Notes: generated by a model from the sequence alone, not told the origin. A stretch of DNA of 32,000 nt from Candidatus Electrothrix sp. GW3-4 (GCF_037902255.1 NZ_CP147990.1:4110001-4142000); one strand, 5' to 3'; counted from the stretch's first letter, positions 1-23,771 are shown. Numbers and translations are program-made.

Positions 1-880
1 CGCTCTCGAAATGTTCCCGCCGGAAAAGGCTCTCTAAGAAGAGACTGATATTAGAATGATGCTTTACTATTTCAGAATGATAGAAAAGTAAATCATCACT
101 GAGCTGATCACAACGACTCAAACAGCTCTCACATTGGTAGGAGGCAATATCCAAGTTGGTAGTTTGGCGTATCTCGTCTCGTATCTTTTCAAGCTCTGCT
201 ATCTTTTGACGAAGTTTATTGAAGAGATGCCGGAAATACATATTCGGCACAATCACATTATGCTCAATATCCATCACCAAGGTATTGATGAATTTCAGGT
301 GATCAATATTTTGCAGGGCAATAAGCCGATTATGCAGGTTATAGCCGATCCGGTTTGTGTACTTACTCAGAAAAAAACGATCCTCTGCGGAGAGCTTCTC
401 TAAGGGAAAAACACTGAACATCCCCAGGATACGATTCCTGCTGTATACCTTCTTAGAGGGAGGGCTCTCCTGGCCCCTTTCCAGCCTTGTCTCTAGGGAT
501 AATTTTCTCCCTCCAGCAGGCTTCTTGTTATAAATAGGAACAATATAAAAATTATCACATTGGTACGGTTCTATACTCAGGGCAACATGTTCTGGGGCTA
601 CTTTTTTGGTCTGATAAACTCCCCGGATGCTGTCACAGGCCAAGTAGAGTTCCCTTGTTTCTTCATCCAAGAGATAAAGGGCACTGTCAAGGCCGGTCAT
701 CTCCAGAGGAACAGCAACGCAGATTCGATAAAAATCATCAAGTGAATCGTACTCCTGCGCCAGATCAAAAAAGGCCTTGAGAAAATCATTAAACGCAGAA
801 GTAAAATTATAGCGTTCATAATTTTTTGATTTTTCGCGTATCCGCTGGCAAATTCTTTGAAGATCTGAACAATGCGGCAT
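1..880 (-). CDS. Sensor protein, N-terminal part (GAF-like region followed by a divergent HisKA-like helix); the 3' end lies beyond the left edge of the window
   Basis: This gene is absent from the ORF track because its stop is left of position 1. My own translation of the minus strand starts at ATG (complement of 878-880), with an in-frame TGA 11 codons upstream, and stays open to position 2. It reads MPHCSDLQRICQRIREKSKNYERYNFTSAFNDFLKAFFDLAQEYDSLDDFYRICVAVPLEMTGLDSALYLLDEETRELYLACDS...LGMFSVFPLEKLSAEDRFFLSKYTNRIGYNLHNRLIALQNIDHLKFINTLVMDIEHNVIVPNMYFRHLFNKL...SLFLESLFRREHFES. FINTLVMDIEHNVIVP looks like a divergent H-box (His with Pro at +5). All domain calls are by eye. Confidence 0.5.
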   Translation of the reverse strand, partial: MPHCSDLQRICQRIREKSKNYERYNFTSAFNDFLKAFFDLAQEYDSLDDFYRICVAVPLEMTGLDSALYLLDEETRELYLACDSIRGVYQTKKVAPEHVALSIEPYQCDNFYIVPIYNKKPAGGRKLSLETRLERGQESPPSKKVYSRNRILGMFSVFPLEKLSAEDRFFLSKYTNRIGYNLHNRLIALQNIDHLKFINTLVMDIEHNVIVPNMYFRHLFNKLRQKIAELEKIRDEIRQTTNLDIASYQCESCLSRCDQLSDDLLFYHSEIVKHHSNISLFLESLFRREHFES

Positions 881-997
881 TAGGCTCGCCCTCTGTTTCT
901 GCGACCGTTTTCAAAAGAACGGTCGGGGAAAAAATACATTGTCGGGGACACACCCGTCATAAAAGGACAACGAAGGAGAATACCCCTTCGTTACTTC

Positions 998-1531
998 TTA
1001 CTTTATATCAACCGCCACTTCATCACCCTTCCGATCCTCAGACAGCAGCACATCAACCCGTTCTGATGCATCGGCACGAATACAGACCCCTGTAAAATCC
1101 GGTTGGATGGGGAGTTCACGACCCTGACGATCAACCAAGACAGCCAGCTGAATAGAACGAGGGCGCCCATAATCCATCAACGCATCCATAGCGGCCCGGA
1201 TAGTGCGCCCGGTAAAGATAACGTCATCCACCAGCACAACATCCTTATCCTCAACCGTGAATTCGATATTGGTTTTGCGAACAATGGGATTTTGCGAGAT
1301 CAGGCTCCAATCATCCCGGTACAGGGTGATGTCCAGGCTGGCCATGGGCACCTCGTTATCCTCATGGGCAGTAATCTTTTCATGAAGCCGGGCAGCCATA
1401 AACACTCCGCCCGTATGGATGCCGACGATAGCCAAATTTTCGACGCCTTGATTCCGTTCAAGAATCTCCATGGCCAATCGTTCTATGCTCCGCTCAATAG
1501 CTTCGCTGTTCATAACAATGCGGACGGACAT
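998..1531 (-). CDS. pyrR: Bifunctional pyrimidine regulatory protein / uracil phosphoribosyltransferase PyrR
   Basis: The 179-aa ORF 998..1537 has the PRPP-binding loop VVLVDDVIFTGRTIRAAMDAL and the PyrR-typical N-terminus (IERLAMEILERN...LAIVGIHTGGV). The track start at 1537 is TTG. ATG at 1531 has AGAGG 6 nt upstream and lies 2 nt after the purN stop, so I prefer 1531. Confidence 0.9.
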   Translation of the reverse strand: MSVRIVMNSEAIERSIERLAMEILERNQGVENLAIVGIHTGGVFMAARLHEKITAHEDNEVPMASLDITLYRDDWSLISQNPIVRKTNIEFTVEDKDVVLVDDVIFTGRTIRAAMDALMDYGRPRSIQLAVLVDRQGRELPIQPDFTGVCIRADASERVDVLLSEDRKGDEVAVDIK

Positions 1532-1533
1532 AT

Positions 1534-2109
1534 TCAACCTCTGTTCCAGAAATAGGCAGCACCCTTTTCATCCACCAAATTAATGGCTTCAGGAAAGGCC
1601 TCACACTCTTTGGCAAACACCTTATCTGCAATATCATCAGGTGAATCAGCAGGGGCTAACGAGACACATTTTTGCAGAATAATAGGACCTTCGTCATAGA
1701 CCTCGTTGGCAAAATGAACAGTACAGCCGCTGACAGTACAGCCTCTGGCCTTGACGGCCTCATGGACATGATGACCGTAAAAACCCGGGCCGCAGAAGGA
1801 GGGAATCAGGGAAGGATGAATATTAACAACCCGTTGTTGCAGTTGTTGCGATGGTTCATACAGTTTAAGGTAACCGGCAAGGGTGACAAGGTCAATATCA
1901 TATTCCGCCAGGATCTTATTAATGGCTGCATTATCAGCAGCGTGAAAGGCCGGATAGCCATATTTTTGTGCTTTCTCCAGCCCCAAGGCGTCACCGACAT
2001 TAGAGACAACCACCTGAATCGCTGCCTTCATCGCGCCTGCCTGGATACATTCATGAAAATTATCCAGGGTCCTGCCTGATCCAGACAGCAGTACTGCTAT
2101 CTTTTGCAT
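1534..2109 (-). CDS. purN: Phosphoribosylglycinamide formyltransferase PurN
   Basis: 191 aa. Motifs: IAVLLSGSGRTL, VVSNVGDALGLEKA, LAGYLKL, VNIHPSLIPSFCG, GCTVHFANEVYDEGPIILQ. ATG start with AGGAGA upstream. Confidence 0.92.
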   Translation of the reverse strand: MQKIAVLLSGSGRTLDNFHECIQAGAMKAAIQVVVSNVGDALGLEKAQKYGYPAFHAADNAAINKILAEYDIDLVTLAGYLKLYEPSQQLQQRVVNIHPSLIPSFCGPGFYGHHVHEAVKARGCTVSGCTVHFANEVYDEGPIILQKCVSLAPADSPDDIADKVFAKECEAFPEAINLVDEKGAAYFWNRG

Positions 2110-2189
2110 TCTTTTCTCCTTTACCGCAGAGAGGAAACAGAAAGGGCGGCCCTATAACGGTACCGCCCCTTCCTGTCTTCTTTCTGCCT

Positions 2190-2810
2190 CTATTCCCCGT
2201 CAAAATAGGGGTTTCTCTCCACATCCACTTTCACCAGCCAATCAGCAATGGCAGTATCATAAGACGAGGTCAGCTGAAAGACCTTCACTGCCAGCTTGAA
2301 TCTGGTCTTCAGGGTTGTGTTACCGGTTGCACGAATTTCTGCAAGGACCTGATCATAATCAGCAGGATCAACGATCACGGTTACATCCTGAAAATTTTTG
2401 GCTGACGCCCGCAGCAGGGTCGGCCCGCCGATATCGATATTTTCAATGGCATCGCCAAGGGCACAATTCGGATCAGCTACGGTTTTCTCAAAGGCATAGA
2501 GATTCACGGCCACAATATCAATGGGCTTGATACCGTGCTCTGCACATTGCTGCTGATGATCGGCATTCTCCCGCTGATGAAGAATAGCTCCGTGTACCAG
2601 GGGATGCAGGGTTTTGACCCGTCCATCCAGCATTTCCGGAAAACCGGTGAACTCAGACACGTCAGTCACGTCAATGCCATTGTCCCGCATCTTTTTGGCC
2701 GTTCCGCCAGTGGACAGGATCTCGATGCCCATCTCGGTTAATGCCTTGGCAAAATCTTCAATGCCGGATTTATCGGTCAGGCTGATTAAGGCCCTGGCTG
2801 CTTTGTTCAT
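2190..2810 (-). CDS. Stand-alone IMP cyclohydrolase (MGS-like N-terminal domain of PurH only; no AICAR formyltransferase domain)
   Basis: [18 protein letters not shown]...[50 protein letters not shown] matches the PurH IMPCH domain. The ORF stops about 20 aa after the [11 protein letters not shown] helix, and only 80 nt separate it from purN. The track start at 2828 is TTG. ATG at 2810 ([11 protein letters not shown]) has GAGGAAG upstream. Confidence 0.85.
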
Positions 2811-2893
2811 TTCTTCTTCCTCACTCAAAATAGGTAGTTCTTATTATCTATTTATATTCTAATAATTTTTAAGGCCAGCTCTTCAGGGCTTGC

Positions 2894-2923
2894 CATGTCC
2901 CATCATGTCCCATCATGTCCCAT
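2894..2923. repeat. Three perfect tandem copies of the 10-mer CATGTCCCAT, running into a 7-bp hairpin (TCCCATG 2918-2924 / CATGGGA 2931-2937)
   Basis: Read directly from the sequence: tgc CATGTCCCAT CATGTCCCAT CATGTCCCAT gtaaagacatggga. It lies in the intergenic gap between the hslR stop (2948) and the purH' start. Confidence 0.9.
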
Positions 2924-2947
2924 GTAAAGACATGGGAGACGAATACC

Positions 2948-3352
2948 TCAGTCGTCTTTACGAAGAAACTTCCTGATTTTTCTCCGGTCCCGTTTATCGG
3001 GTCGCCCCTCAGGCCGGGAGGCAGGGGCCTTGACCAAGCGCCTTTGTTCACGGGCCTCCTCACGTTGAGTCCGAGATTCCTCAGTCTCTTCGTACAGGGT
3101 GATAGCCACCTTAGCCGGGCCACGACGGTCGCTCAGCGCCAAGATATTGATCGTATAGATCTCAATGCCCCGTTTGATGCGGAGTTGCTCCCCACCTTGG
3201 ACAATACGAGAAGGTTTCACGCGCTTACCATTGAGATGAACATGGCCGCCACTCACCGCCTTTGAAGCCATTGAACGTGTCTTAAAAAAACGTGCGGCCC
3301 AGAGCCATTTATCAAGGCGGACAGCGATTTCCTGCTTATCTCTGTTTGTCAT
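2948..3352 (-). CDS. hslR: Ribosome-associated heat shock protein Hsp15 (S4 RNA-binding domain)
   Basis: VRLDKWLWAARFFKTRSMASKAVSGGHVHLNGKRVKPS...YEETEESRTQRE...RPDKRDRRKIRKF tracks E. coli Hsp15 end to end. The track start at 3370 is GTG. ATG at 3352 (MTNRDKQEIAVRLDKW) gives the canonical length. Confidence 0.88.
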   Translation of the reverse strand: MTNRDKQEIAVRLDKWLWAARFFKTRSMASKAVSGGHVHLNGKRVKPSRIVQGGEQLRIKRGIEIYTINILALSDRRGPAKVAITLYEETEESRTQREEAREQRRLVKAPASRPEGRPDKRDRRKIRKFLRKDD

Positions 3353-3488
3353 TTTTCCGGTGCTTTTCACCCTCTTTTTGATACGATGACAACTTCATCA
3401 GATAATAGGATTTCTGAAAAAGCGCAAGGGAACTCTATATTCAATTTTGTACGACATGTAAATATTGCCTTATGTTGGTTGAAAAAAT

Positions 3489-4325
3489 ATGGTAATACTG
3501 CTCGCTCGTTGTATCAGCGAGATACTTACTCATAAAGATCCAATCCTGACAGGAACAAAAAATTCCATGAAGTTACATTCCGTCGGCATAAAACATTTTA
3601 CCTGTCCTGTTTCCATTCGAGAACAAAAAGGAAGCGTGCAGCAGACTGTTGCTGAAATCAACCTGCAGGCCTCCCTTCCCCACCGTTTCAAACGGTCCTG
3701 TCTAGAGATATTTACCTGTATTTTGGCTAAGTATCAACAGGATATGCATACGAAAATCTTCCCTGAGCTCCTGACTGAGGTGCAGAACAACCTCCAGGCA
3801 GAAGAGGCGGAAATGGAAATGCAATTTCCCTATTTTATCGCCAAACAGGCCCCGGTAACCGGAACAGAGAGCCTGATGGAGTATGACTGTTCCTTTATCG
3901 GCAGCATTGACCATCAGGAACACCAACTCCTCTTAAAGGTCAGCGTGCCGCTTACCACGCTCTGTCCCTGCTCAAAGGAAATCAGTCAGCAGGGAGCGCA
4001 TAATCAGCGGGCTGAAGTGATCCTGACGGTGCGACCTCTGGGATTCATCTGGTTGGAAGAACTCATCTCTATGGTGGAAAGCTGCGGCTCCTGTGAACTC
4101 TATGCCCTCCTGAAACGACCAGATGAAAAATTTGTCACCGAAGAGGCCTATGCCAATCCCATGTTTGTTGAAGATGTGGTGAGAAAGGTCGCCCAGAAAG
4201 CACAGGACCATAAAACCATAGGCTGGTTTTCGGTCAGTGTGGAGAGCTTTGAGTCCATCCACAAACACAGTGCCTATGCCTATGTCGACAGTAACGATCT
4301 GGACCAGGAATTCGCCAAAGAGTAA
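3489..4325 (+). CDS. folE2: GTP cyclohydrolase I type 2 (FolE2/MptA family)
   Basis: Motifs: VGIKHFTCPVSI, FPYFIAKQAPVTG, SVPLTTLCPCSKEISQQGAHNQRAEV, ELYALLKRPDEKFVTEEAYANPMFVEDVVRKV. The start is uncertain: ATG 3489 or ATG 3567 (MKLHSVGIK, with AGGA 12 nt upstream). Confidence 0.85.
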   Translation: MVILLARCISEILTHKDPILTGTKNSMKLHSVGIKHFTCPVSIREQKGSVQQTVAEINLQASLPHRFKRSCLEIFTCILAKYQQDMHTKIFPELLTEVQNNLQAEEAEMEMQFPYFIAKQAPVTGTESLMEYDCSFIGSIDHQEHQLLLKVSVPLTTLCPCSKEISQQGAHNQRAEVILTVRPLGFIWLEELISMVESCGSCELYALLKRPDEKFVTEEAYANPMFVEDVVRKVAQKAQDHKTIGWFSVSVESFESIHKHSAYAYVDSNDLDQEFAKE

Positions 4326-4382
4326 AAAGGGCAAAAGAGAAGGGCAATCTCCCTCTATCCCAACTTCGCCTCTCCTTCTTGT

Positions 4383-5842
4383 CTACTTTTCAATCCCGCC
4401 GAGGCAGAGATATTTCTGTTCCAGATATTCTTCGATACCGTATTTCGAGCCCTCACGCCCAATACCCGACTCCTTGATGCCGCCAAAGGGAGCAGATTCT
4501 GTTGACATGATACCTGTATTAACTCCAACCATACCGTACTCCAAGGCCTCGGACACACGCCAGCATCGCCCTATGTCCTTGCTGAAAAAATACGAGGCCA
4601 GACCATAAGGCGTATCATTGGCCACGGCAACAGCCTCTTCTTCCGTGGCAAAGGAAAAGAGCGGGGCCACAGGACCAAAGGTCTCCTCATAGGCGATCTG
4701 CATCTCTGTGGTCACATCAAGAAGGATCGTCGGTTCAAAAAGAAGCCGGTTTCCCCTACTCTCTTGCCACCTGATCCGAGACGGGCCCCTTTGCCCAGAG
4801 CATCCTGGATCTGCTGCTCCACTTTTTGGACCGCATTCAGATCGATAAGTGGTCCCTGATTGACCCCTTCATCAAAGCCGTTTCCTACCTTGAGCTGCGC
4901 CTGCACGGCCTGAATCAGCTTTTCTGCAAAGGCATCATATACTCCTTCCTGAACAATAAAACGATTGGCGCAAACGCATGTTTGTCCGGAATTTCGATAC
5001 TTCGAAGCAATGGCATTAGTAACCGCTTCATCTAAATCGGCATCATCAAAAACGATGAACGGAGCGTGCCCACCCAGCTCCAGGGAAATTTTCTTGACCG
5101 TATCTGCGCATTGCCGCATCAACATCTTCCCTATTTCCGTGGAACCGGTAAAACTGAGTTTGCGAACAGTTGGGCTTTCTGTTAATGCCCCGCCGATTGC
5201 GGAGGCCGACCCGGTCAGGACATTAAAGATACCCGGCGGTATTCCTGCCTCCTCGGCAAGCTTGGCCAAGGCCAAGGCGGAAAGAGGGGTCTGACTCGCA
5301 GGTTTCACAATCACCGGGCAACCTGCGGCCAAGGCCGGAGCAGCTTTGCGGGTGATCATAGCAGAAGGAAAATTCCAGGGAGTAATGGCTGCACAGACAC
5401 CGACGGGTTGCTTAAGGACGATGATCCGTTTTCCCGGTTGGGCCATGGGAATAGTGTCCCCGTAGACTCGTTTCGCTTCCTCTGCAAACCATTCCACAAA
5501 ACTGGCTGCGTAGAGGATCTCACCCCGTGATTCTGTCAGCGGCTTGCCCTGCTCGGCGGTCATAATGATGGCTAAATCTTCCTGATGCTCAATAATTAGA
5601 TTATACCAGCGTCGAATGAGCCGCGAACGTTCATGGGCGGTTTTGCTTCGCCATACTGGCCAGGCAGCGTCGGCAGCCTCTATCGCCTGGAAAGTTTCTT
5701 CCCGTCCCAAGGAAGGGACAGAACCGATCAATGCACCATTTGCCGGGTTATGCACGGCAATGCTCTTTTCATCTCCTGAGGAGATCCAATTTCCGTTAAT
5801 AAAACAACGGCTACAAAGCAAGTCTTTATTTTTTAAAATCAT
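4383..5842 (-). pseudogene. gabD: Succinate-semialdehyde / NAD(P)+ aldehyde dehydrogenase (GabD-like), reading frame broken once
   Basis: ORFs 4712..5842 (376 aa) and 4383..4715 (110 aa) together cover a roughly 486-aa ALDH: ITPWNFPSAMITRK, SFTGSTEIGK, LELGGHAPFIVF, SGQTCVCANR, then [11 protein letters not shown]...[24 protein letters not shown]. The break is at GETGFF|LNRRSFLM*. Adding one base to the run at 4737-4741 (A5 on +, T5 in the gene) restores [29 protein letters not shown]. Confidence 0.88.
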
Positions 5843-6041
5843 AGAAACAACTCCAACTTATGAAAAGAAATACAATTTTTTAAACTTCAAAAGTGTCGCC
5901 ACAATGTGTGACCCAAAAAGGCATGTGCTTTTTGCTGGTAAAAAGAAAAATTTATGATAAAGAATCAAAGAGGGGTTCTTATAAGCTATATATTCCCATC
6001 AGCGCGTTTTTCCTTGCGGCAGAAGAATTTTCAAGCCGTTG

Positions 6042-6515
6042 ATGTTCCTGTTGCCCGGACAATTGAAAAACAGCGATTCGTTCAGGGCATTTTCCCGGCA
6101 GGAAAAGATGATCTTAGCAGGACAAACAAAAACACTCGGCAACTGTTTTCCGATAGAAATTACAGCGCAACATGCAGGCTCTGGAAAAGTTATGGCCGGG
6201 CCCCTTCGAGGAAGACTTTTTGATCTTTCAAAAAACGATGCCTGCCTGCTCATGAGTCAGATTATGGATGAGACATATCATCTCTTTTACTCGACCCAGG
6301 AAAACGATCTCCTCTTCCTGAATCTTTTTTTTGACCTGCCTTCGGCTCCTGATGAGCACGTCAAACTCACAGCTCTCCCGCTGTGGTTTAATATTTTTCA
6401 GCAAGGACAAATTCGAAATTTTGTCATGGGTGTTGAGTTCACCAGGAATCTTGAAGAAAAAACAATGAAAGAACTCCTGAAAGGTGTCGGTCGTCGCCAC
6501 AAAAGAATGGTATAA
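6042..6515 (+). CDS. Hypothetical protein, PilZ-like with a degenerate motif
   Basis: ORF 6039..6515 (TTG, then ATG at 6042). It contains RAFSR (RxxxR) and, 41 residues later, DLSKNDA where PilZ domains have D/NxSxxG (Gly replaced by Asp). There is no other recognisable similarity, and the start codon is uncertain (ATG 6108 is also possible). Confidence 0.4.
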   Translation: MFLLPGQLKNSDSFRAFSRQEKMILAGQTKTLGNCFPIEITAQHAGSGKVMAGPLRGRLFDLSKNDACLLMSQIMDETYHLFYSTQENDLLFLNLFFDLPSAPDEHVKLTALPLWFNIFQQGQIRNFVMGVEFTRNLEEKTMKELLKGVGRRHKRMV

Positions 6516-6557
6516 CAAATTTTTACCTCACCCCATCACCTCTTCTCCTCTTCTCCT

Positions 6558-8138
6558 TTACCTATGGTTGTTTTTTCCTTTCTCTAACCCCAGGACACTG
6601 AATGTCTGGACTGAGTATTGTACCCCTTTCAAAACCATCTTGCCCACATCTTTTACCCGAACCTTCTTATCAAGCTGCTTTCGCTTCAGATCCTCAAGGA
6701 CCTTATCGGTGATATAGATCCTGGAGGAAGTCGCTTTTGAGGCCAGGCGCTGCGCAATATTTACCTCGGTTCCAATGACCGTGTAATCCAGGCGTCTGGC
6801 CGAGCCCACATTACCAAGAAACATCTCTCCCCGGGTCACAGCAAAGCCGAGATCAATGGTAGTAAAAAAAGGATCCCTGGCCTGCCAGTCTGCTTTTAGG
6901 TCAGCAAAACGCTCTCGGATAGCAAGGGCGGTCTCTATAGCGGTAAAAGAGGGGTGGTCGAGCTCTATAAGGGCACCAAAGATTGCCAAGACAGCATCGC
7001 CCATAAATTTATCCACCGTGCCCCGGTATTCAAAAATCGTCTCGGTAAAGAGTTGAAAAAACTCGTTGAGAAAATCGCGCAGGACAGCTAAGGGAATCTC
7101 CTGCACCATCCCTGTGAAATTTCGGATATCGGCAAAAAGGACGGTTGCCTCCTTGACTTCACCAAGACCGGTGGTGAGATCGGCATCACTGGCCAGCAGC
7201 ACTTCTGCAACCTCAGGGGCAACATATTGCTCCAGAAGTGCCTGCAGTCTGGCTTCCTGGGCTACCGATTCAAAGGCATATACGTTTTCTATAGCTAACG
7301 CGGCCTGGGTACTGAAGATACCGAGGATTTCAATATCAGAGTCAGCAAAGCGAATATCACCATCAGTATAACTGACATTGAGGACGCCCAAAATCTTATC
7401 TCGGACGATCATGGGAAAGGAAACAGCTGAAACGATCTCTGGTCTTTTCAGCAGGTCAGCAAACCTGGAGTCATTCTGGGTTTCCTGATTCAAGATGACC
7501 GGCGTGCGTTCCTGGAAAACACGACCTGCAATCTTATCACCAGGTTTTATCTTGATCTGATCGATCATCTCCTCAGGAATCCCTCGAGAAGCGGCGATAC
7601 GCAGAACGCCTTCATTCGCATCGTATAGCATCACCGACAGGCTGTCCGCAGCTGTCTGATCGCCAATAACATTGAGCAGGCTTTCCAGGACATCGTGTTG
7701 GCTGGTGGAGGACATGAAATGTTCTCCCAGCCCATAGAGAGGAAGCAGGGCGCGAAGACGGGCATTCTCTTCCCGCAGGGCAGCGGATTCCATGGCCTTG
7801 GCAACCCTTTCCCGTACTTGGTCTGGGTCAAGGGGAGGGGAAAACAGCCCGGCAAAACCGCTCTCCATCGCTGCCGGGCAAAGGCTACCAGCAGATGTTC
7901 TATCCACTATCAAAAAACCGAGCAGACCAGGCCGAGATGCACGCAGGCTATCAAATAGTTCTATCCCGCTTGCCCCTGGCAGCTCCTGAACAACCAAAAC
8001 GACCCTGACCGGTTGATGAATACAGATGTTTAAGGCCTCATACGCGAAGCACCAATCTACATCATATTCATGTAAGATATCAGTCACCTGTTGACAAAGT
8101 TCGGGATCCTCCGCAATCAACAGGATATCCGGCAGCAT
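6558..8138 (-). CDS. Pseudo-receiver / GAF / class III adenylate cyclase
   Basis: 526 aa. The N-terminus has a CheY-like fold (DILLIAEDPEL...VVLVVQELPGASGIELF). The middle is GAF (LSVMLYDANEGVLRIAASRGIPEE...PGDKIAGRVFQERTPV...FPMIVRDKILGVLNVSY). The C-terminus is a cyclase homology domain (VLFADIRNFTG, GTVDKFMGDAVLAIFGA, RRLDYTVIGTEVNIAQRLAS) with the Lys/Asp pair typical of ATP specificity. Confidence 0.88.
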   Translation of the reverse strand: MLPDILLIAEDPELCQQVTDILHEYDVDWCFAYEALNICIHQPVRVVLVVQELPGASGIELFDSLRASRPGLLGFLIVDRTSAGSLCPAAMESGFAGLFSPPLDPDQVRERVAKAMESAALREENARLRALLPLYGLGEHFMSSTSQHDVLESLLNVIGDQTAADSLSVMLYDANEGVLRIAASRGIPEEMIDQIKIKPGDKIAGRVFQERTPVILNQETQNDSRFADLLKRPEIVSAVSFPMIVRDKILGVLNVSYTDGDIRFADSDIEILGIFSTQAALAIENVYAFESVAQEARLQALLEQYVAPEVAEVLLASDADLTTGLGEVKEATVLFADIRNFTGMVQEIPLAVLRDFLNEFFQLFTETIFEYRGTVDKFMGDAVLAIFGALIELDHPSFTAIETALAIRERFADLKADWQARDPFFTTIDLGFAVTRGEMFLGNVGSARRLDYTVIGTEVNIAQRLASKATSSRIYITDKVLEDLKRKQLDKKVRVKDVGKMVLKGVQYSVQTFSVLGLEKGKNNHR

Positions 8139-8331
8139 TATAGTACTCTTAGTGCATTTTTTAGCGGATTGAGAGGCATCGTGGAAACTTATCCCTACGA
8201 CAAACGACCGTTGTCTCTCCTTTCGTTGGCGAAAGCCAATTCTACTAGCATTCTACCATCCACATTCTGACAAGGCAACAGCGGTGATTAATTATTCTTT
8301 TTCAAAAAAAATATTCAGGCGTGTTATCGTC

Positions 8332-8360
8332 TTGACGCTCCCCCATTTTCTGATCATAAT
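8332..8360 (+). promoter_or_regulatory. Sigma70-like promoter candidate for rarA (TTGACG - 17 nt - CATAAT)
   Basis: TTGACG at 8332-8337 and CATAAT at 8355-8360, with a 17-nt spacer. The predicted start site falls about 1-3 nt from ATG 8369. Confidence 0.4.
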
Positions 8361-8368
8361 ATTCATCT

Positions 8369-9805
8369 ATGAATAAAAGCAAGAAGATGGAAAGCCATAA
8401 TTCGACACCGCTAGCCGAGCGCATGCGACCGGTTTCACTGGATAATTTCTCAGGACAACAACACCTTGTCGGCAAGGGGAAGCTACTCCATGAATTAATC
8501 CATAACAGCACCATCCCCTCCTTGCTTCTCTGGGGGCCTCCAGGCTCAGGAAAAACCACCTTGGCCTCTATTGTAGCCCATACCATGCAGGCAGATTTTA
8601 TATTTTTTTCCGCAGTGTTATCTGGGGTAAAAGAACTTAGGAAGATTGTCCAGGAGACGCGAGAAAGAAAGAAAGAGGAAGAAAGGCAAACCATCCTTTT
8701 TGTCGATGAGATTCATCGCTTTAACAAGAGCCAACAGGATGCCTTATTGCCCCATGTGGAAAGCGGTCTCCTGACCTTGATCGGTGCGACAACGGAAAAT
8801 CCCTCTTTTGAGGTCATAGCTCCCCTGCTCTCTCGCTGCCAGATGCTGCTCTTGCACCCCCTTGCCGTGGAAGACATCATCTGCATCCTCATGCGGGCCC
8901 TGGAGGATGAAAACACCGGCCTGGGTGCTTATGGTCTTCAGATGGAAAAAGAGGTTGCCGAGATGATCGCCCAAGCCGCTGATGGTGACTGTCGACGGGC
9001 CCTCAACTATCTTGAAACCGCAGCACTCCTTATCATCAAAGACGAGAATGATACACCACGGACTATCACTCGTGAAACCATTCTTGAGGTGGTACAGGGA
9101 CAGACACTTCGTTATGATCGGGCAGGAGAAGAGCATTACAACCTGATATCAGCCCTCCATAAAAGCCTGCGCGACAGTGATCCAGATGGCGCCTGCTATT
9201 GGTTAGGGCGAATGCTGGTCAGCGGCGAAGACCCGCTCTATATTGCCCGCCGCCTGATTCGTTTTGCCAGTGAGGACATCGGTGTCAGCGATCCAAGGGC
9301 CCTGGAAGTAGCAATAAGTTGCCGTAAGGCCTATGATATGCTCGGTTCACCTGAGGGAGATCTGGCCTTATACCAGGCCACGGTCTATCTTGCGACGGCT
9401 CCAAAAAGCAATGCCTTGTATTTAACGGAAAAAAAGATTAAAGAAGAAATACGTCGCTCCGGCACATTATCTGTGCCCCTCCACCTGCGGAATGCGCCCA
9501 CAGGACTCATGAAGAAAATCGGGTACGGGAAGGGATACCAATACGCTCATGACGCTAAGGATGGCCTCGTCGTTCAGGAACATCTACCGGAACAGCTTGC
9601 AGGAAGACGTTTTTATCAGCCCACGGAGAGAGGATTTGAAGCTGTTATTCATGATCGTTTGACGAAATGGCGAAAGATCCTTCAACAACGGGCAGTACAA
9701 CATCGAAAGAAGAAGACTCAAAAAAGGGCTGACTCTACCAAGGGCGAGGTTATTCGTTTGCTGATGAACTTTTCCTCACCAACAGGAGTCCCCATAGCAA
9801 CCTAA
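8369..9805 (+). CDS. rarA: Replication-associated recombination protein A (AAA+ ATPase RarA/MgsA)
   Basis: PLAERMRPVSLDNFSGQQHLVG...LLLWGPPGSGKTTLA (Walker A), ILFVDEIHRFNKSQQDALLP (Walker B / sensor), MgsA C-terminal domain (YDRAGEEHYNLISALHKSLRDSDPDGACYWLGRML). An alternative start is ATG 8387. There is a basic C-terminal tail of about 40 aa beyond the usual end. Confidence 0.92.
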   Translation: MNKSKKMESHNSTPLAERMRPVSLDNFSGQQHLVGKGKLLHELIHNSTIPSLLLWGPPGSGKTTLASIVAHTMQADFIFFSAVLSGVKELRKIVQETRERKKEEERQTILFVDEIHRFNKSQQDALLPHVESGLLTLIGATTENPSFEVIAPLLSRCQMLLLHPLAVEDIICILMRALEDENTGLGAYGLQMEKEVAEMIAQAADGDCRRALNYLETAALLIIKDENDTPRTITRETILEVVQGQTLRYDRAGEEHYNLISALHKSLRDSDPDGACYWLGRMLVSGEDPLYIARRLIRFASEDIGVSDPRALEVAISCRKAYDMLGSPEGDLALYQATVYLATAPKSNALYLTEKKIKEEIRRSGTLSVPLHLRNAPTGLMKKIGYGKGYQYAHDAKDGLVVQEHLPEQLAGRRFYQPTERGFEAVIHDRLTKWRKILQQRAVQHRKKKTQKRADSTKGEVIRLLMNFSSPTGVPIAT

Positions 9806-9838
9806 GCAATTAACCTAAAAAACATATTTACTGATACC

Positions 9839-11578
9839 ATGAATCTTATTGCTATGCTGTCTCGGAAAAAATACATATTTTCCCATCTTTTTCTGCTGCT
9901 GATTGTGCTGCTGACCCTGGCACCGTCATCTTGGGCAGAAGAGTTTTTACTTTTTTACGGGAATGATGTACGCGGTGAGCTCCAACCCTGTGGTTGAAAG
10001 AGAAAACAACTGGGCGGGCTGTCCAGAAAAGCATTACAGATAACACAACGTGCTGAGCAGGAAAAACTTCCTTTCCTGTTCGTTGATAGCGGTTCTCTGC
10101 TTTTTCAGCATAAAAAGATACAGGCAAAAAAAGAAGCCGCAAAAAAAGTCGAGGCCAACGGTATCGCTGCAGCCATGCAGGCGATGAACTGCCGGGCTGT
10201 CGGTATTGGTGCCCACGATTTGGCTGCTGGTGTCAACTTGTTGAAAGAGCTTCAGGAACGGCATAAAACCGTTTGGCTCTCCATGAATCTGGTTGATCCA
10301 GAAAAAAAGGAGCCTATCTTCACACCATACCTTATGACCAAGGTCGGTGGCTTGAAGATTGCTCTCTTAGGATTGACAGACGACCAGAGGGATCATAATG
10401 GAGAAGGTGAAGAGAAAGGAGGGTATACCATCCTGCCTTGGCAGGATACCCTGCCCAAAATCCTTGCTCAGGTAGGGAAAAAAGTCGATATGACCATTCT
10501 TCTTTCAAGTTATTCCTACCAAATCAATAAAGAAATAGCTGAAACGGTTGACGGCCTTCATATGATTCTGGAATCTGGCCATGCCGCTCCGACCGCAGAA
10601 CCCTATAAAGTTGAAGATACGCTGATTGCCCAAACCGGAACACGAGGGAAATATCTGGGCATGATGCGAATTGACTGGAACGAAGCTGGGCAATGGACCG
10701 ATAAGTCCTTTACTCGCCTACGAACAGAGGAAAATCGCCTGAAGCGCGTAAACCAACAACTTGCCCGCCTGGAAAAACAAAAAGATACGGCGGCATTGGC
10801 CAAAAATACAGGCTACAAAAAATTATCCGCAGAGAAAAAAGAGCTTACTCAAAGTATAAAGGCGTTAAAGCAAAGCAGGGATTCTGCTGCCCCGGAGGAC
10901 GATGGTATGTGTAAATATACCAATCGGTTTGTCCCGTTGAATACCTCCTTACCGGAAGATCCAGAGGTCAAAAAAATTATTGACCGGGCTATTCAACAGG
11001 CAAATGCAATCAACCAACAGCGGATTGCCAAAACAGGTCAGAACGATCCCACAATCACCCTTCAGGACCTAGCGGGTTCACAGAAATGCCAGCAATGTCA
11101 TGCCGCCCAAATGACGGTCTGGCAGGACAGTAACCATGCACAGGCGTGGACTACCCTGGAAAAGAACAATCAGCAGTTTAACGAAGATTGCCTGATCTGT
11201 CACGTCACCTTACCCTTTTATGATACAGACAAGGTAAAGGCTGGTAATCTCCTGTTGATGCTGCCAAAGTCCTTGAAGAATATTGGCTGCGAGGCCTGTC
11301 ACGGGCCAGCTGCAGCACATAGCGCAGGCCAGGGCAAGGTACCTGTTGCCCGGCCAGATGAAAAAATCTGCCTCGGATGCCACACACCCGACCATGACGA
11401 TAATTTCATCTTTACCGAAAAGGCCAAGCGGTTAGGTTGCACGTCATCGGCACAGGCACAAAAACTGGAACAAAAAAAACAGGTGAAGAAGATGGAGGAG
11501 AAAGAAGAATCGACAGCCTCTGAGGCAGCAGATCCTCCTCCGACGATTACTCCTCAGGGGAAAAAAGTAAAAAAATAA
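9839..11578 (+). CDS. Periplasmic 5'-nucleotidase-like / tetrahaem c-type cytochrome; candidate selenoprotein (in-frame TGA at 9995-9997, codon 53)
   Basis: ATG 9839 encodes the signal peptide MNLIAMLSRKKYIFSHLFLLLIVLLTLAPSSWA, then EEFLLFYGNDVRGELQPCG-TGA-KRKQLGGLSRKALQITQRAEQEKLPFLFVDSGSLLF...AAAMQAMNCRAVGIGAHDLAAG. This continues in the same frame into track ORF 10175..11578. Four CxxCH motifs are present (CQQCH 11087-11101, CLICH, CEACH, CLGCH 11369-11383), with a coiled-coil segment between the two domains. The downstream ORF alone has no export signal. Confidence 0.65.
10010..10026 (+). promoter_or_regulatory. SECIS-like hairpin 12 nt downstream of the in-frame UGA
   Basis: CUGGGC (10010-10015) pairs with GUCCAG (10021-10026). 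That is 6 bp including one G-U pair, with a G-rich apical loop GGGCU (10016-10020). The spacer after UGA is AAGAGAAAACAA (12 nt). Confidence 0.45.
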
Positions 11579-11592
11579 GCCAAGTAAAACCA

Positions 11593-11615
11593 TTCCTCCC
11601 CCTCTGGGGGAGGGA
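11593..11615. terminator. Hairpin between the convergent cytochrome and lptC genes (possible bidirectional terminator)
   Basis: TTCCTCCCCC (11593-11602), loop TCT, GGGGGAGGGA (11606-11615): 8 Watson-Crick pairs plus G-U and A-U. It sits 15 nt after the cytochrome stop and 16 nt after the lptC stop. Flanking U-tracts are weak. Confidence 0.5.
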
Positions 11616-11630
11616 AAACTGTAGATTGCT

Positions 11631-12197
11631 CTACAGCACCACCTCGACCCGATTATTGAAATCATAGCCACCAGTCGAGACGTCATAATCCATTCTCCCG
11701 GCCTTGAGATTGAATTTCGGCCCCTTGATCTCAACATCTCCTGGACTGATCAGCATCTTCGTGGTGTCATAATAATGAAGCAGGTCAGAGTACATCTCTT
11801 CATACTGAAGGGGCTTGATAATCACAACATCATCAATCAAGGTAAGATGCTGATCATCCATGTGGTATTTTCCGTTCTTGCTGGTTATGCTGATGGATGA
11901 TTCGTCCTTTTTGTGATACAGGGCATCAACATCAATCATATGGATTTCCCGATCAGTTTCACCGGTCTGGGCCTGTTTGGCCTTAATAGTCCAGGTCTGG
12001 ACGCCTTCAGTGGTAAAGGTAATGAGCACATCGTCCATCACGAAATCCTGCGACTGCTCCTGATAGGCTCGCTCGGCAACCTCATCGTAGCCCCCCCTCG
12101 GCTTGAGAAATTGGGCAGCAGCCCCCTTCCACAAAGGACTGGTGGCAATAATGCCGACAGGGATGACCCAGAGAAGATTTCGATAACTTCCCATCAT
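11631..12197 (-). CDS. lptC: LPS export system protein LptC-like
   Basis: 188 aa with an N-terminal membrane anchor (LLWVIPVGIIATSPLW) followed by a beta-rich body. It sits immediately after kdsC with a 1-nt overlap (TGATG), the conserved kdsA-kdsC-lptC arrangement. The assignment rests mainly on context and size. Confidence 0.6.
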   Translation of the reverse strand: MMGSYRNLLWVIPVGIIATSPLWKGAAAQFLKPRGGYDEVAERAYQEQSQDFVMDDVLITFTTEGVQTWTIKAKQAQTGETDREIHMIDVDALYHKKDESSISITSKNGKYHMDDQHLTLIDDVVIIKPLQYEEMYSDLLHYYDTTKMLISPGDVEIKGPKFNLKAGRMDYDVSTGGYDFNNRVEVVL

Positions 12198-12835
12198 CAG
12201 GTTACTTGCATGTATCTGTTCAGCAGCTGAGAAAGCAGCCCCTTGGCCTCCAGGAGCAGTTCACAGGCCTCACGAACAGCGCCATGCCCTCCATTCCTTT
12301 CCGTGACATAATCAACTTGGCGGCAGACCTCCGCAGCTGCATTGGCCGGGGCAAAGCTACATCCGACCTGCATTAAGACAGGAAGGTCGAGCCAATCATC
12401 GCCCATATAGGCTGTCTGTTCTGGCTGCCAGCCCTGTTGTGCAAGAAGAGCAGCATAGGCATCTCGCTTGTTGCGGCAGTCAGTATACACATGCTCCAAC
12501 TTGAGTTCCTTGGCCCTTCTGGCAACGGCTTCAGAGCTGCGAGCGGTGATGAGCCCCACCGCAATCCCGGCATCGCGAAGGAGGCGCAGGCCGAAACCAT
12601 CCAAGGTATTAAACCCCTTTATCTCTTCAGATGCTCCTGCGTAGAAAAGGGTGCCATCGGTCAGGACACCGTCAACATCCAACAAGAGCACTTCAACCTT
12701 TTTTGCCCGCATCATGGCAGCCCGCCAAGCGTTGCTGCGCAAAATAGGCTGCTCTCGCTTCATAGCCCGTTCACGCAGGGACTGGGTCAGACCACAATCA
12801 GAGTATGTACAGTTGTTCTCTGACACCTTATCCAT
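12197..12835 (-). CDS. kdsC: 3-deoxy-D-manno-octulosonate 8-phosphate phosphatase KdsC (HAD superfamily)
   Basis: [45 protein letters not shown]-like ([17 protein letters not shown]), GGHGAVRE. About 40 extra N-terminal residues overlap the kdsA stop by 8 nt, so an internal Met ([16 protein letters not shown]) could be the true start. Confidence 0.88.
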
Positions 12836-13676
12836 TGGTCACTTTCTGGACCGTTTCCCGGATAGCCAACAGCTGTTCCAGCAGGGCCTCCACCTCATTC
12901 AGGGGGATACTATTGGGTCCGTCGCAGAGGGCCTTGTCCGGGTCAGGATGCACCTCCATAAAGAGACCGTCAATACCAGCAGCTATAGCAGCCCTGCTCA
13001 AAGTCGGGATAAACTCCCGTTGCCCTCCAGAACTCCCGCCCATTCCGCCAGGCAGTTGTACCGAGTGGGTGGCATCAAAAATGACGGGGCAGCCGAGAGA
13101 GCGCATCACAGGCAGGGAGCGCATATCCACCACCAGATTATTATACCCGAAGCTTGCGCCCCGTTCTGTGAGGAGAATCCGATCACAGCCAACAGCGCGC
13201 AGTTTGTCCACAGCGTGCTTCATATCCCAGGGGGAGGCAAACTGCCCTTTTTTCAGATTCACGGTCTTGCCGGTTCTCGCTGCTGCGACCAGGAGATCGG
13301 TCTGACGACAAAGAAAAGCCGGGATCTGAATAATATCCAAGGCGTCTCCGGCAAGATCCATCTGGCTGGTTTCATGAACATCTGACACCACAGGAACGCC
13401 TACTTCCTGGCGAATACGATCAAGCTGACGCAGGCCGTTTCGAAGGCCTGGCCCCCGGAATGAATCCAAGGAGGTACGGTTGGCCTTATCAAAGGAAGCC
13501 TTGAACACATAGGAAATTCCCAGGCGTTCACAGATCTCCTTCATTTCCTTGGCAACCCGCCAGCCCAGCTCACCAGATTCCAAGGCGCAGGGACCAGCCA
13601 GAAGCAGAAGAGGGTGCTCTGGTCCAACAGAAACGCTCTTTCCCCCTGGAAGGGTGCTGATCTCAAAGGATTTCAT
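12828..13676 (-). CDS. kdsA: 2-dehydro-3-deoxyphosphooctonate aldolase KdsA
   Basis: 282 aa: [79 protein letters not shown]. Confidence 0.95.
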
Positions 13677-13729
13677 CGTAACACAAACTCCGGAAAGATA
13701 TTTTCGCTATAAGCCGGTGCAGCTTCAAT

Positions 13730-15376
<1,647 letters not shown>

Positions 15377-15466
15377 ACCTCTATCCTTTATATGCCGATT
15401 TCGGCTTTACGGAAGCAAGGAACCAGCTGCTCCTGTCCCGATTTCGCTCTTATTTTACAGGAGACA

Positions 15467-15495
15467 ACCATACTCCAAACAGCAATGTTTGACAA
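15467..15495 (-). promoter_or_regulatory. Sigma70-like promoter candidate for pyrG (TTGTCA - 17 nt - TATGGT on the minus strand)
   Basis: The complement of 15490-15495 is TTGTCA and the complement of 15467-15472 is TATGGT, with a 17-nt spacer. This predicts a leader of roughly 85 nt before ATG 15376. Confidence 0.4.
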
Positions 15496-15575
15496 CCACA
15501 CCCTGTGGTTTTCGAAGAATACTTTTTTCATACAAGAGTGAAGAGGGAGAACAAGAGGAAGGGGATGAACAAAAA

Positions 15576-15615
15576 AGCAAGGATCTGTTTTTAGGACTAA
15601 AAACAGATCCTTGCT
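15576..15615 (-). terminator. Rho-independent terminator: perfect 19-bp hairpin followed by T6 on the minus strand
   Basis: AGCAAGGATCTGTTTTTAG (15576-15594) is the exact reverse complement of CTAAAAACAGATCCTTGCT (15597-15615). On the minus strand the stem is followed by TTTTTTG (complement of 15569-15575). Confidence 0.8.
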
Positions 15616-15953
15616 GAAAATAAAATCAGAGATCCTCCTTGGGGAAAACCGGGTTTTCCCCAAGGACTCCAACCGTTATCTGTAGATATATGGCCTAGGC
15701 AGAGGACGCACGACGGGTGCATAATATACATGGGGGTATACCCCCTACGATGGTAATACCTGCCGTGATGAAACACATCCCCAAAAATAGAGGCGCCAAC
15801 AGCAACTGCCCCCACTGCTGCCGCTGTATGAACAGTATCCCGATAACGATCAGCCTCTGTATATGTACCATAAGGGCCAGTTCCTGGCCCAACACAAGAT
15901 GTCAACCAAAGGCAGAGGGCCGTACAGACACAAAAAAGTATTATTTTCTTCAT
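15597..15953 (-). CDS. Small lipoprotein with a glycine-zipper-like segment; the 3' end is doubtful
   Basis: MKKIILFCVCTALCLWLTSC has a lipobox L-T-S-C, and AGGAGG lies upstream of ATG 15953. AAAVGAVAVGASIFG is a Gly-zipper-like stretch. The last roughly 40 codons run through both hairpins listed above (see findings). Confidence 0.65.
   Translation of the reverse strand: MKKIILFCVCTALCLWLTSCVGPGTGPYGTYTEADRYRDTVHTAAAVGAVAVGASIFGDVFHHGRYYHRRGYTPMYIMHPSCVLCLGHISTDNGWSPWGKPGFPQGGSLILFSARICF
15636..15666 (-). terminator. Second strong hairpin (14-bp perfect stem) upstream of the terminator
   Basis: TCCTTGGGGAAAAC (15636-15649), loop CGG, GTTTTCCCCAAGGA (15653-15666). Confidence 0.55.
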
Positions 15954-16399
15954 TTGATCCTCCTTGGTGATACACCTCTATCAGTGAATTAGTCTCTTTC
16001 TTCTATATATAGTGTATAGGTACCGGTGCAGTTTTGCAATCAAATTGCAAAAGGCCGGGAGCAGAACAAAGAGGCCTCCTGCTTTTTAGCATATTCAACT
16101 GGTTTTCTGTAACTACTCAGCCCCATATAAAAAACAAAAAAAGCCAGAGTAAAAAACTATGGCAAAGAAATAGAACGCCTCAAACAGAAGTTTGAAAAGC
16201 TTTGCTCAGCAGGGGAGGTATGCGTTGTGATGATTTGGCTCTTCTTTTACCTTCCTTGGGTCAGCCTCATCGCCTGGATGCCAGGAGGTGAAGCAAATTG
16301 CATACGCATCTAATAATGAGGAACCAATAATGATCTCTACAGTCGTAAGTTCTCAACGGTTTATGATCAATTAAAGCTGCCTTTAGTATTTGCGTTGGG

Positions 16400-17851
16400 T
16401 TATGCTGCTTTCCTGGTCCACACGTTTGAATCTCGAAAAATCTTATCCTCAATTTTACCCTTCAAAATCGTGGAGCGGATTTTTCGCATTATTGCACTGG
16501 GAGCGACATTGAGAAAATCACGCATAAGCAAACCGGCAAGAACATTTTTCGTTGTTCGTTCAGAAGGTATTTCCCGTGAACGTGTCTTGAGGAACCCTTC
16601 ATACTGATGCCAAATCTCCGTGGAGAACAGCGTTGCGACCAACTGGAGCAATCCCAAGGTGATTGCACCAATATTCACAAACCCTTCTGTCGCATCCCAG
16701 CATCGTTGAATGGCTTGTAGGTTTTTCGGTTTCGGAGTAATGAGTTCGCTGTTTCTTCTGGGTTTTCTGGAGTGTTTTGGCATCCCTTTTGACCAGAAAT
16801 GACACTGAAATGCATGGATAACATTTTTAAGCATATCGAACATGGTTTCAATTCGTACCCTAAGGCAGTACAGTTCAATTGCTGCCAGTGGGTCCTGTGA
16901 TACGTTGCTACACATAAGCACAATACGACCATGAGATGTTTCGGCAAAAACAAAACGAAGAGTGGTGCGCAAAGGCTGCCACAGTAAATCAAGATGATAC
17001 AGCTTGATCGTTTCAACCTTATTGTAGATACGTGCTTCAACTGTAGCAAAACAACTCTGATGGTCAAAAATCTCCATCAGATGAACTTTTTCACCGTATT
17101 TTGCGTAGCAACCTGATCCCTTATAGTCTTTTGGATCTGCTTGAAAATAAGCGACATAATTCTTTTTTGCCCGGACAATAATTTCCACCAAAGGCTGCTG
17201 AAGAGTCAATGAGTATATCGTTTTGGCTCGGTTAAAAACTGTTTTTGTAGAGAAGAAAGCGTCCAGAACCAATAGAGAAGGCTGGTTCGTCCTCAGTGCA
17301 AAAAATAGAGCCATATCAACCATGCATTCTCCCATAGTTGGTACATTGTCATTGTTTTCTTTCCCCAAATGTTGATATCCTTGATGCATTTGCAACATCA
17401 GCGGCAAAGCGAACATATGGGGAGCAACGCCGGTAACCGCAGCAAGAGCCCCCCAGCATTGCCCACGGAAATAACTGGGCTTACTTTGTGTGTCGCTGTC
17501 CTGATGTAACGTAACAACTCCAGGCATTTTTCGTCCGTCTCGCGAGAGGACAGTATGGTCTCCCAGTGTGACGATACGTCCTTGTGAGGTCATACATAAC
17601 CCACTTGAACTCACAAAGAAGAACCAATGATTCAGTAATTCGTTCAGAGTCCAGGCCGAAGAACGAAAAAAATGATTTAACGTGTGATAGCCCGGTATTT
17701 CTAACAACCAGAAACGGCAGAAAGAACTGACACCGACCATTTCTGTGCTGCCAATAAAACCGAGAACAATCATGACAAAAATAAGCCAGGTTTTGTCACG
17801 GGAAAAAACAGTACGAAAGCTTGTTAACGAGTCATACAAATAGTTGATCAT
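16400..17851 (-). CDS. DDE transposase of IS-A (IS4-type Y(2)R(3)E(6)K signature)
   Basis: 483 aa. Candidate DDE residues are in LGDHTV, LVLDAFF and RIETMF. The motif LYCLRVRIETMFDMLK fits Y-x2-R-x3-E-x6-K, the IS4-family hallmark. Confidence 0.88.
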   Translation of the reverse strand: MINYLYDSLTSFRTVFSRDKTWLIFVMIVLGFIGSTEMVGVSSFCRFWLLEIPGYHTLNHFFRSSAWTLNELLNHWFFFVSSSGLCMTSQGRIVTLGDHTVLSRDGRKMPGVVTLHQDSDTQSKPSYFRGQCWGALAAVTGVAPHMFALPLMLQMHQGYQHLGKENNDNVPTMGECMVDMALFFALRTNQPSLLVLDAFFSTKTVFNRAKTIYSLTLQQPLVEIIVRAKKNYVAYFQADPKDYKGSGCYAKYGEKVHLMEIFDHQSCFATVEARIYNKVETIKLYHLDLLWQPLRTTLRFVFAETSHGRIVLMCSNVSQDPLAAIELYCLRVRIETMFDMLKNVIHAFQCHFWSKGMPKHSRKPRRNSELITPKPKNLQAIQRCWDATEGFVNIGAITLGLLQLVATLFSTEIWHQYEGFLKTRSREIPSERTTKNVLAGLLMRDFLNVAPSAIMRKIRSTILKGKIEDKIFRDSNVWTRKAA

Positions 17852-17896
17852 ATAATCACCGCTTCTTTTTTTGAAGAAGCCTATGATTATATGATC
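17846..17896 (-). promoter_or_regulatory. Nested hairpin covering the IS-A transposase start codon (copy 1)
   Basis: Same sequence as 23721-23771 in copy 2: 13-bp arms GATCATATAATCA / TGATTATATGATC enclose a 7-bp inner stem GCTTCTT / AAGAAGC. The ATG lies inside the distal arm. Confidence 0.6.
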
Positions 17897-18001
17897 GTTT
17901 TACAATCTCAGCAAGTCAGCCGAGAACTTACGACTGTAGAGTAATGATGGGTTCTGTGCAGGAGACAACTCTGCGGGAGAACTCATGAGACAATGAAAAT
18001 C

Positions 18002-23601: not shown

Positions 23602-23720
23602 AATACCCTCTCTATTTTTTTTTCTCTTTCCTCAGCAGCTATGAAGGAAAGCATGGGACTGTACCTCGTACCGTCCTCTACAGTCGTAAGTTCTCGGCTG
23701 ACTTGCTGAGATTGTAAAAC

Positions 23721-23771
23721 GATCATATAATCATAGGCTTCTTCAAAAAAAGAAGCGGTGATTATATGATC
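23721..23771 (+). promoter_or_regulatory. IS-A internal promoter candidate plus start-codon-sequestering hairpin (copy 2 coordinates)
   Basis: TTGCTG (23703-23708) - 17 nt - TATAAT (23726-23731). The 13-bp arms are GATCATATAATCA (23721-23733) and TGATTATATGATC (23759-23771). The inner stem is GCTTCTT/AAGAAGC. The transposase ATG at 23766-23768 lies inside the right arm. Confidence 0.5.

Follow-up and report, generated by a model that had tools for sequence, protein, structure and literature searches.

Positions 9839 to 11578 (plus strand) of a 32,000-nucleotide stretch of DNA from Candidatus Electrothrix sp. GW3-4 (NZ_CP147990.1:4110001-4142000; the whole stretch is hereafter called the window) very probably form one gene of a marine cable bacterium (Candidatus Electrothrix-like Desulfobulbia), in which an in-frame UGA is recoded to selenocysteine (Sec) and whose product is an exported member of a known selenoprotein family, the UshA-like PCGU proteins. 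The gene is a single frame of 579 codons plus stop, running from ATG 9839 to the TAA at 11576-11578. Its sole internal stop is codon 53, the TGA at 9995-9997, which together with the three codons before it reads CCC TGT GGT TGA (Pro50-Cys51-Gly52-stop53). A sequence-only reading of the window had proposed that this TGA links a signal peptide and a 5'-nucleotidase-like domain to a tetrahaem cytochrome, and that it encodes Sec. The continuity of the frame bears out the first proposal, and the second is now supported by a column in which Sec and Cys codons alternate among relatives, a covarying hairpin of the selenocysteine insertion sequence (SECIS) type, coding-type substitutions on both sides of the TGA, and an independent assembly.

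The same reading had presented the protein as a candidate new selenoprotein, a claim that has to be withdrawn. With U written as C, the complete coding sequence (9839-11578) matches the NCBIfam model NF041198 ('UshA_like_PCGU, UshA-like (seleno)protein') with 604.3 bits against a cutoff of 275 (E = 1.7e-181), residues 16-525 aligning to positions 4-518 of the 519 of this equivalog model, which owes its name to the PCGU motif and covers the tetrahaem domain. Score and coverage, the PCG-U/C motif and the C-terminus with four CxxCH all agree with the definition of the family. Zhang & Gladyshev listed it in 2008 as 'COG0737, UshA-like', with the motif CxU, and counted 76 Sec and 92 Cys sequences from Global Ocean Sampling metagenomes (PMC2398784). 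It is listed as 'UshA-like protein' in a 2022 review (PMC9312934), and as 'UshA-like protein, NF041198, CxU' in a 2026 review (PMC13188914). In view of this membership and of its presence in the literature since 2008, a new family is unsupported, and the protein is an ordinary representative of one that had been catalogued before. Our literature search found no functional study of the UshA-like PCGU family, and the family goes unmentioned in the 2005 Sargasso Sea and 2007 Olavius symbiont papers.

With regard to the N-terminus, inspection of the sequence points to a secretory (Sec-type) signal peptide over residues 1-33 (9839-9937), with a basic n-region (R9 K10 K11), the hydrophobic core LFLLLIVLLTL and the c-region PSSWA, for which cleavage is predicted after SWA (SWA/EE). 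The predicted mature protein would start EEFLLFYGN..., its N-terminal peptide being EEFLLFYGNDVR, and the peptide spanning the Sec codon would read ELQPCGUK. All the orthologues checked carry an equivalent leader 5' of the TGA or Cys codon. An alternative start at ATG 9854 (Met6) is possible, and neither ATG is preceded by a clear Shine-Dalgarno sequence. The product is predicted to be exported via this leader, and would gain four c-type haems in the periplasm.

A protein search returned 113 relatives, mostly from Desulfobulbia and many of them from Candidatus Electrothrix. At the DNA level, 80 genomic loci were fetched, 71 of which had a recognisable motif, so that the column table comprises 72 sequences with the window. 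The sequence-only reading had pointed to the orthologue column at codon 53 as informative, and in the 71 relatives this column holds TGA (46 sequences) or a Cys codon, TGC or TGT (25 sequences), and no other codon; with the window counted, the figures are 47 TGA and 25 Cys. Sister genomes therefore differ at this position only in the way expected for a Sec/Cys pair. Such alternation is the standard comparative signature of such a pair. Pro50, Cys51, Gly52 and Sec/Cys53, together with Gly46, Gly59 and Gly60, are invariant in 72/72 sequences, so that the Cys51-Gly52-Sec53 codons (TGT GGT TGA, 9989-9997) lie within an invariant P-C-G-U/C motif. The full-length Cys orthologues P0027, P0030, P0032 (Ca. 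Electronema), P0036 and P0099 begin with a signal peptide followed by ...FLLFYSND.HGETEPCGC...QLGGL..., the second Cys of the motif aligning with the TGA. Full-length orthologues thus start upstream of the site, with a signal peptide, and not at the equivalent of Met 10175, where the mechanical list of open reading frames (ORFs) places the start of this gene.

The TGA group includes E. laxa (L001), many Desulfobulbia and metagenome-assembled genomes (MAGs) labelled Enterobacterales, Cognaticolwellia, proteobacteria, Myxococcota and Verrucomicrobiia; among the Cys sequences are those of Electronema, Scalindua and Myxococcales. Within this distribution, a second Sec clade can be recognised by the motif PCGU-PK(N/R/H)P-x-GGL (L035-L041, L046, L054, L055, L068, L071, L072 and L075), its MAGs being labelled Enterobacterales, Cognaticolwellia, proteobacteria, Deltaproteobacteria and Myxococcota; at 12 loci of this clade, a conserved gene of about 530 residues lies upstream (for example at 1402-2994 of L046). 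Cable bacteria of the genus Ca. Electronema live in freshwater, and those of Electrothrix are marine. The former have a Cys codon (TGC/TGT) at the site (L002 at 3133; L004 at 3145), and the Electrothrix lineage has Sec (window 9995; L001 at 3157; L031 at 3166). Electronema aureum (L002) keeps a relic of the downstream hairpin described below, with 5/6 pairs and the loop GGTCT, which suggests a recent switch from Sec to Cys.

Comparison of the window with E. laxa shows how the sequence on either side of the TGA has diverged. Over the 52 codons 5' of the TGA, the differences at codon positions 1, 2 and 3 number 9, 2 and 15, respectively, and over the 59 codons 3' of it they number 10, 7 and 14. 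Before the ATG, about 63% of sites differ in an ungapped fixed register, which is near the level of unrelated sequence. This pattern of substitutions shows coding-type evolution both 5' and 3' of the TGA.

The hairpin itself (CUGGGC-GGGCU-GUCCAG, 10010-10026) has a 6-bp stem and a 5-nt loop. Its 17 nucleotides begin 12 nt 3' of the UGA, within the stretch that encodes L-G-G-L-S-R, and occupy +16 to +32 when the U of UGA is counted as 1. The stem was scored in a fixed register, from pair 16:32 to pair 21:27. All six pairs are formed in 33/47 TGA sequences and in only 1/25 Cys sequences (Mann-Whitney p = 8.6e-11). When only sequences encoding the same LGGL peptide are considered, the full stem is found in 31 of 36 TGA sequences and in none of nine Cys sequences; since the split persists at an identical peptide, the stem is kept by codon choice and not by protein sequence. 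The loop GGUCU shows the same division (41/47 TGA sequences vs 3/25 Cys sequences). Furthermore, when the 47 TGA sequences are aligned, 93.8% of cells are paired, compared with 26-61% in controls with a slid 3' partner, and compensatory changes occur at two stem pairs: 13 sequences have U-A in place of C-G, and three have G-C in place of U-A. The covariation score of these sequences was reached by 0/500 shuffles. The family loop and the GGUCU of the E. coli fdhF sequence are in register, both lying at +22 to +26 from the UGA. In the fdhF SECIS, G23 and U24 are determinants of SelB binding. The hairpin would thus present a G-rich apical loop at an fdhF-like distance from the UGA and, by analogy, could recruit SelB with Sec-tRNA(Sec).

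Several observations weigh against this reading and have to be set beside it. The loop of the window is GGGCU and not the family consensus GGUCU, and it therefore has G at +24, where fdhF has U. The same GGGCU loop is found in the closest relatives L001 and L031, as well as in L015 and L076, and the comparison identifies it as a lineage variant, conserved with an intact ORF, that probably amounts to a minor caveat. The minimum free energy (MFE) of the hairpin is unexceptional (z = -0.45 for a 66-nt segment), and Sec and Cys segments do not differ in MFE, owing to differences in GC content; the MFE of the whole segment being uninformative, fixed-register pair counts and covariation were used instead. 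An Rfam scan of 9800-10300 at E <= 10 yielded chance matches only and no SECIS model. Since Sec and Cys sequences each cluster in the phylogeny, the p-values overstate independence, but neither the contrast between TGA and Cys hairpins nor the compensatory changes hinge on the sequences being independent. None of selA, selB, selC and selD is present in the 32-kb window, and ARAGORN, applied to the window and to all fetched loci, detected no tRNA-Sec; the window has no tRNA at all. The Sec machinery of the host is consequently assumed; its presence elsewhere in the genome is very likely, considering that Thermodesulfobacteriota are among the most selenoprotein-rich bacteria (PMC13188914) and that three genomes of the Electrothrix lineage have conserved the TGA, the hairpin and the ORF. 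A literature search on Sec machinery or selenoproteins in cable bacteria found nothing relevant. Finally, the redox role proposed further on draws on motif logic only.

In an error-prone assembly, a stop codon within a gene may simply be a mistake of sequencing or assembly, or a recent nonsense mutation marking a pseudogene, and the window does hold five errors that split or shift other genes. The sequence-only reading had attributed the other breaks to homopolymer indels, and the comparison with an independent assembly agrees. The exact downstream protein (P0001) is also encoded on the Logan assembly contig L081 (run SRR28154588), which is 99.96% identical to window positions 179-16364 (16.2 kb). 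The two differ only in that five homopolymers of the window have lost a single base (4737, 8157, 8304, 9720 and 15732) and that one base is substituted (2214); no difference lies in 9839-11578, where both assemblies read the same TGA. This TGA is genuine. An error or a pseudogene is effectively refuted, as the same column is TGA in 46 other genomes from several phyla and the ORF 3' of the TGA is intact and conserved. The five deletions fall in A, T or G homopolymers, and the window resembles an unpolished long-read assembly. The deletion at 4737 splits an aldehyde/succinate-semialdehyde dehydrogenase, intact with 486 residues in L081, into the minus-strand ORFs 4712-5842 and 4383-4715, and RarA, with 478 residues in the window and 448 in L081, has its C-terminus shifted by the deletion at 9720. 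L081, a short-read contig, ends at window position 16364, just before the first of two insertion sequence copies (see below), as expected for a repeat.

Two further explanations accept the TGA as real and read it otherwise. According to one, translation stops at 9995, yielding a 52-residue peptide or nothing, and the cytochrome is a separate product starting at Met 10175 or at the CTG/TTG of LGGLSRK. The ORF list does start the gene at ATG 10175 (467 residues, beginning MQAMNCRAVGIG), and the database proteins of close relatives begin at MGGLSRK... or further 3', including some named by the NCBI annotation pipeline PGAP. Such products pose a difficulty of their own, which the sequence-only reading had rightly noticed for the Met-10175 ORF: they carry four CxxCH and yet no signal peptide, inspection revealing no hydrophobic leader. 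Two products would in addition cut the 5'-nucleotidase-like domain within its first beta-alpha unit. Coding selection acts on the upstream segment, the Cys orthologues run on across the site without a break, and a hairpin specific to TGA genes is conserved 3' of it. Truncated entries are moreover the usual output of automatic callers at any Sec codon, and two separate products are, on balance, very improbable. The other explanation holds that the UGA is read through by a non-Sec route, by near-cognate insertion of Trp or Cys or because UGA is reassigned. It draws on the Sec machinery of the host genome being assumed and on the departure of the loop from consensus at position 24. However, TGA is the ordinary terminator of 9/18 other genes of the window, which excludes a reassigned codon and makes the recoding site-specific; the column alternates with Cys codons only, never with Trp or Gly; and the hairpin fits the register of SelB-type SECIS elements. 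Readthrough of this kind therefore appears extremely improbable, and recoding to Sec is retained.

This conclusion has a direct bearing on annotation. The public Electrothrix entries P0005 (Ca. Electrothrix aestuarii), P0091 and P0089 have been named 'UshA-like (seleno)protein' by NCBI, the first two being the PGAP-named proteins mentioned above. They start at MGGLSRK... or later, just 3' of the UGA, so that the family name is given and the Sec codon and signal peptide are unannotated. Nearly all database relatives lack the N-terminus, as would be expected if gene callers stop at a conserved TGA. Restoring the Sec codon would give an exported protein of 579 residues, where the truncated entries describe a signal-less cytochrome unable to mature.

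The protein can be divided into three parts downstream of its leader. The N-terminal part, approximately residues 36-290 (9944-10708), is a 5'-nucleotidase/calcineurin-like domain with degenerate metal motifs. Likeness to 5'-nucleotidases on both sides of the TGA, which the sequence-only reading had recognised from motifs, is confirmed by phmmer, which aligns residues 38-249 to the Thermus thermophilus 5'-nucleotidase 2z1a, NDVRGELQPCGU being paired with NDTHAHLEPVEL; further matches are SoxB, UshA, cytochrome c554 (1bvb) and 6i5b. An AlphaFold (AF2) model of the closest full-length Cys orthologue, P0027, has a pLDDT (predicted local distance difference test) of 90.3 and a pTM (predicted template modelling score) of 0.85, and its top Foldseek matches are CD73, UshA and 2z1a (E ~1e-17, template modelling score ~0.46). 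The middle part, approximately residues 291-410 (10709-11068, mapped approximately by homology from the orthologue model), is a long helical linker with a small beta element; the P0027 model has helices at 287-311, 322-343 and 370-391 and a strand at 353-361. The C-terminal part (11069-11413) is a tetrahaem cytochrome c554-like domain, recognised by Pfam PF13435 (47 bits vs a gathering score of 20.8, residues 416-489), by PF14522 and PF09699, and by the phmmer matches to 1bvb and 6i5b. Its four CxxCH motifs lie at 11087-11101, 11189-11203, 11288-11302 and 11369-11383, and exactly four are present in 68 of the 70 family members longer than 400 residues.

In the alignment to 2z1a, the metal-ligand motifs of the window protein are replaced: DxH reads DVR, DAGD reads DSGS, GNHE reads GAHD and SH reads SS. 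Across the family, the columns of the motif-I Asp/His, the GNHE Asn and catalytic His, and the later His are variable; the GD aspartate column (DAGD to DSGS) was read in the window protein only. The Pfam scan of the window protein gave neither Metallophos (PF00149) nor 5_nucleotid_C (PF02872), and the NCBIfam scores are 34 bits for UshA (cutoff 600) and 62 bits for SoxB (cutoff 550), SoxB being the best match outside the family. The N-terminal domain thus retains the fold of 5'-nucleotidases and has lost the canonical dimetal ligands, with the invariant Pro-Cys-Gly-Sec loop placed directly after the first former metal-binding motif. Since the ligands are lost and the PCGU loop is invariant, phosphoester hydrolysis is not the likeliest function, and a periplasmic redox reaction at the Cys/Sec centre, exchanging electrons via the fused tetrahaem domain, is more likely. 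One may still consider that the protein is a working metallophosphoesterase, either a nucleotidase or a SoxB-like thiosulfohydrolase, in which Cys/Sec only tunes or ligates the metal site. The fold, the order of motifs, the match to SoxB and the fact that many hosts are sulfur-cycling Desulfobulbia speak for this possibility. The variable ligand columns, the replaced aspartate of the window protein, the missing Pfam matches, scores far under both cutoffs and the exchange of the C-terminal substrate domain of 5'-nucleotidases for a cytochrome make it unlikely.

Returning to the redox hypothesis, we can tentatively propose, with somewhat less than even confidence, that PCGU proteins represent an uncharacterised class of periplasmic oxidoreductases, in which a Cys-Gly-Sec redox (or chalcogen- or metal-binding) centre sits on a dead 5'-nucleotidase scaffold and is wired to four haems. 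If this is the case, they could supply electrons to the periplasmic pool of sulfur-cycling Desulfobulbia, cable bacteria among them, or withdraw electrons from it, and the switch between Sec in marine Electrothrix and Cys in freshwater Electronema would reflect selenium supply. As regards selenoprotein families, nothing new is established; the question that has been sharpened is the function of a widespread Sec/Cys family keeping only the PCGU loop and four haems, which makes it a tractable target in the search for new redox activities in the periplasm of cable bacteria and related organisms.

The genes surrounding the ushA-like gene in the window are housekeeping genes. Clustering of the neighbourhoods of the 80 loci placed rarA upstream in 28 and a probable family-II pyrophosphatase, identified by eye, downstream in 17; it revealed housekeeping synteny only, with no operon partner hinting at a pathway. 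Immediately downstream, the ushA-like gene and the lptC gene converge on an intergenic stretch with a GC-rich palindrome, CCTCCCCCTCTGGGGGAGG (11594-11618). A terminator-like site is called there on the minus strand from a consensus match only, and the palindrome may act as a terminator in both directions. Further along the window are two copies of an IS701-family transposase (16780-17941 and 23676-24837), which are inverted, 1162 nt long and 100% complementary, and which bracket about 5.7 kb with amiC-like, ybgF-like, fumA, ribH and nusB genes.

Compared with known systems, the recoding element resembles the E. coli fdhF SECIS, which is likewise a hairpin directly 3' of the UGA within the coding sequence and has the same loop register. 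Unlike the fdhF element, it has neither an extended lower helix nor a bulged U, its stem being short and perfect with 6 bp; it also differs in the G at +24, and its binding of SelB is predicted. From the NF041198 or 'COG0737, UshA-like' CxU family, with which it shares the P-C-G-U motif, the domain order including the tetrahaem C-terminus, and the Sec/Cys alternation, the protein differs in nothing substantial, the Electrothrix clade being marked by its GGGCU loop and by a longer Lys/Glu-rich C-terminal tail. NF049981 (UshA-like selenoprotein family 2) also combines a 5'-nucleotidase-like scaffold with a Sec near the N-terminus, but its spacing is CxxU and its model has only 262 positions, too short to span a cytochrome domain such as the one found here; the window protein scores 39.6 bits against a cutoff of 140 and is not a member. 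UshA, CD73, the T. thermophilus 5'-nucleotidases and SoxB resemble it in the N-terminal fold, the order of motifs I-III and the periplasmic or extracytoplasmic location, whereas the window protein has not kept their metal-ligand and catalytic residues, and the C-terminal nucleotide-binding domain of the 5'-nucleotidases gives way to the helical linker and the tetrahaem cytochrome. The latter, for its part, is akin to cytochrome c554 of Nitrosomonas and to c554-like modules in its PF13435 match above threshold, its four CxxCH and its phmmer match to 1bvb, with the difference that it is fused to the C-terminal side of an enzyme-like domain and is not a free-standing electron carrier.

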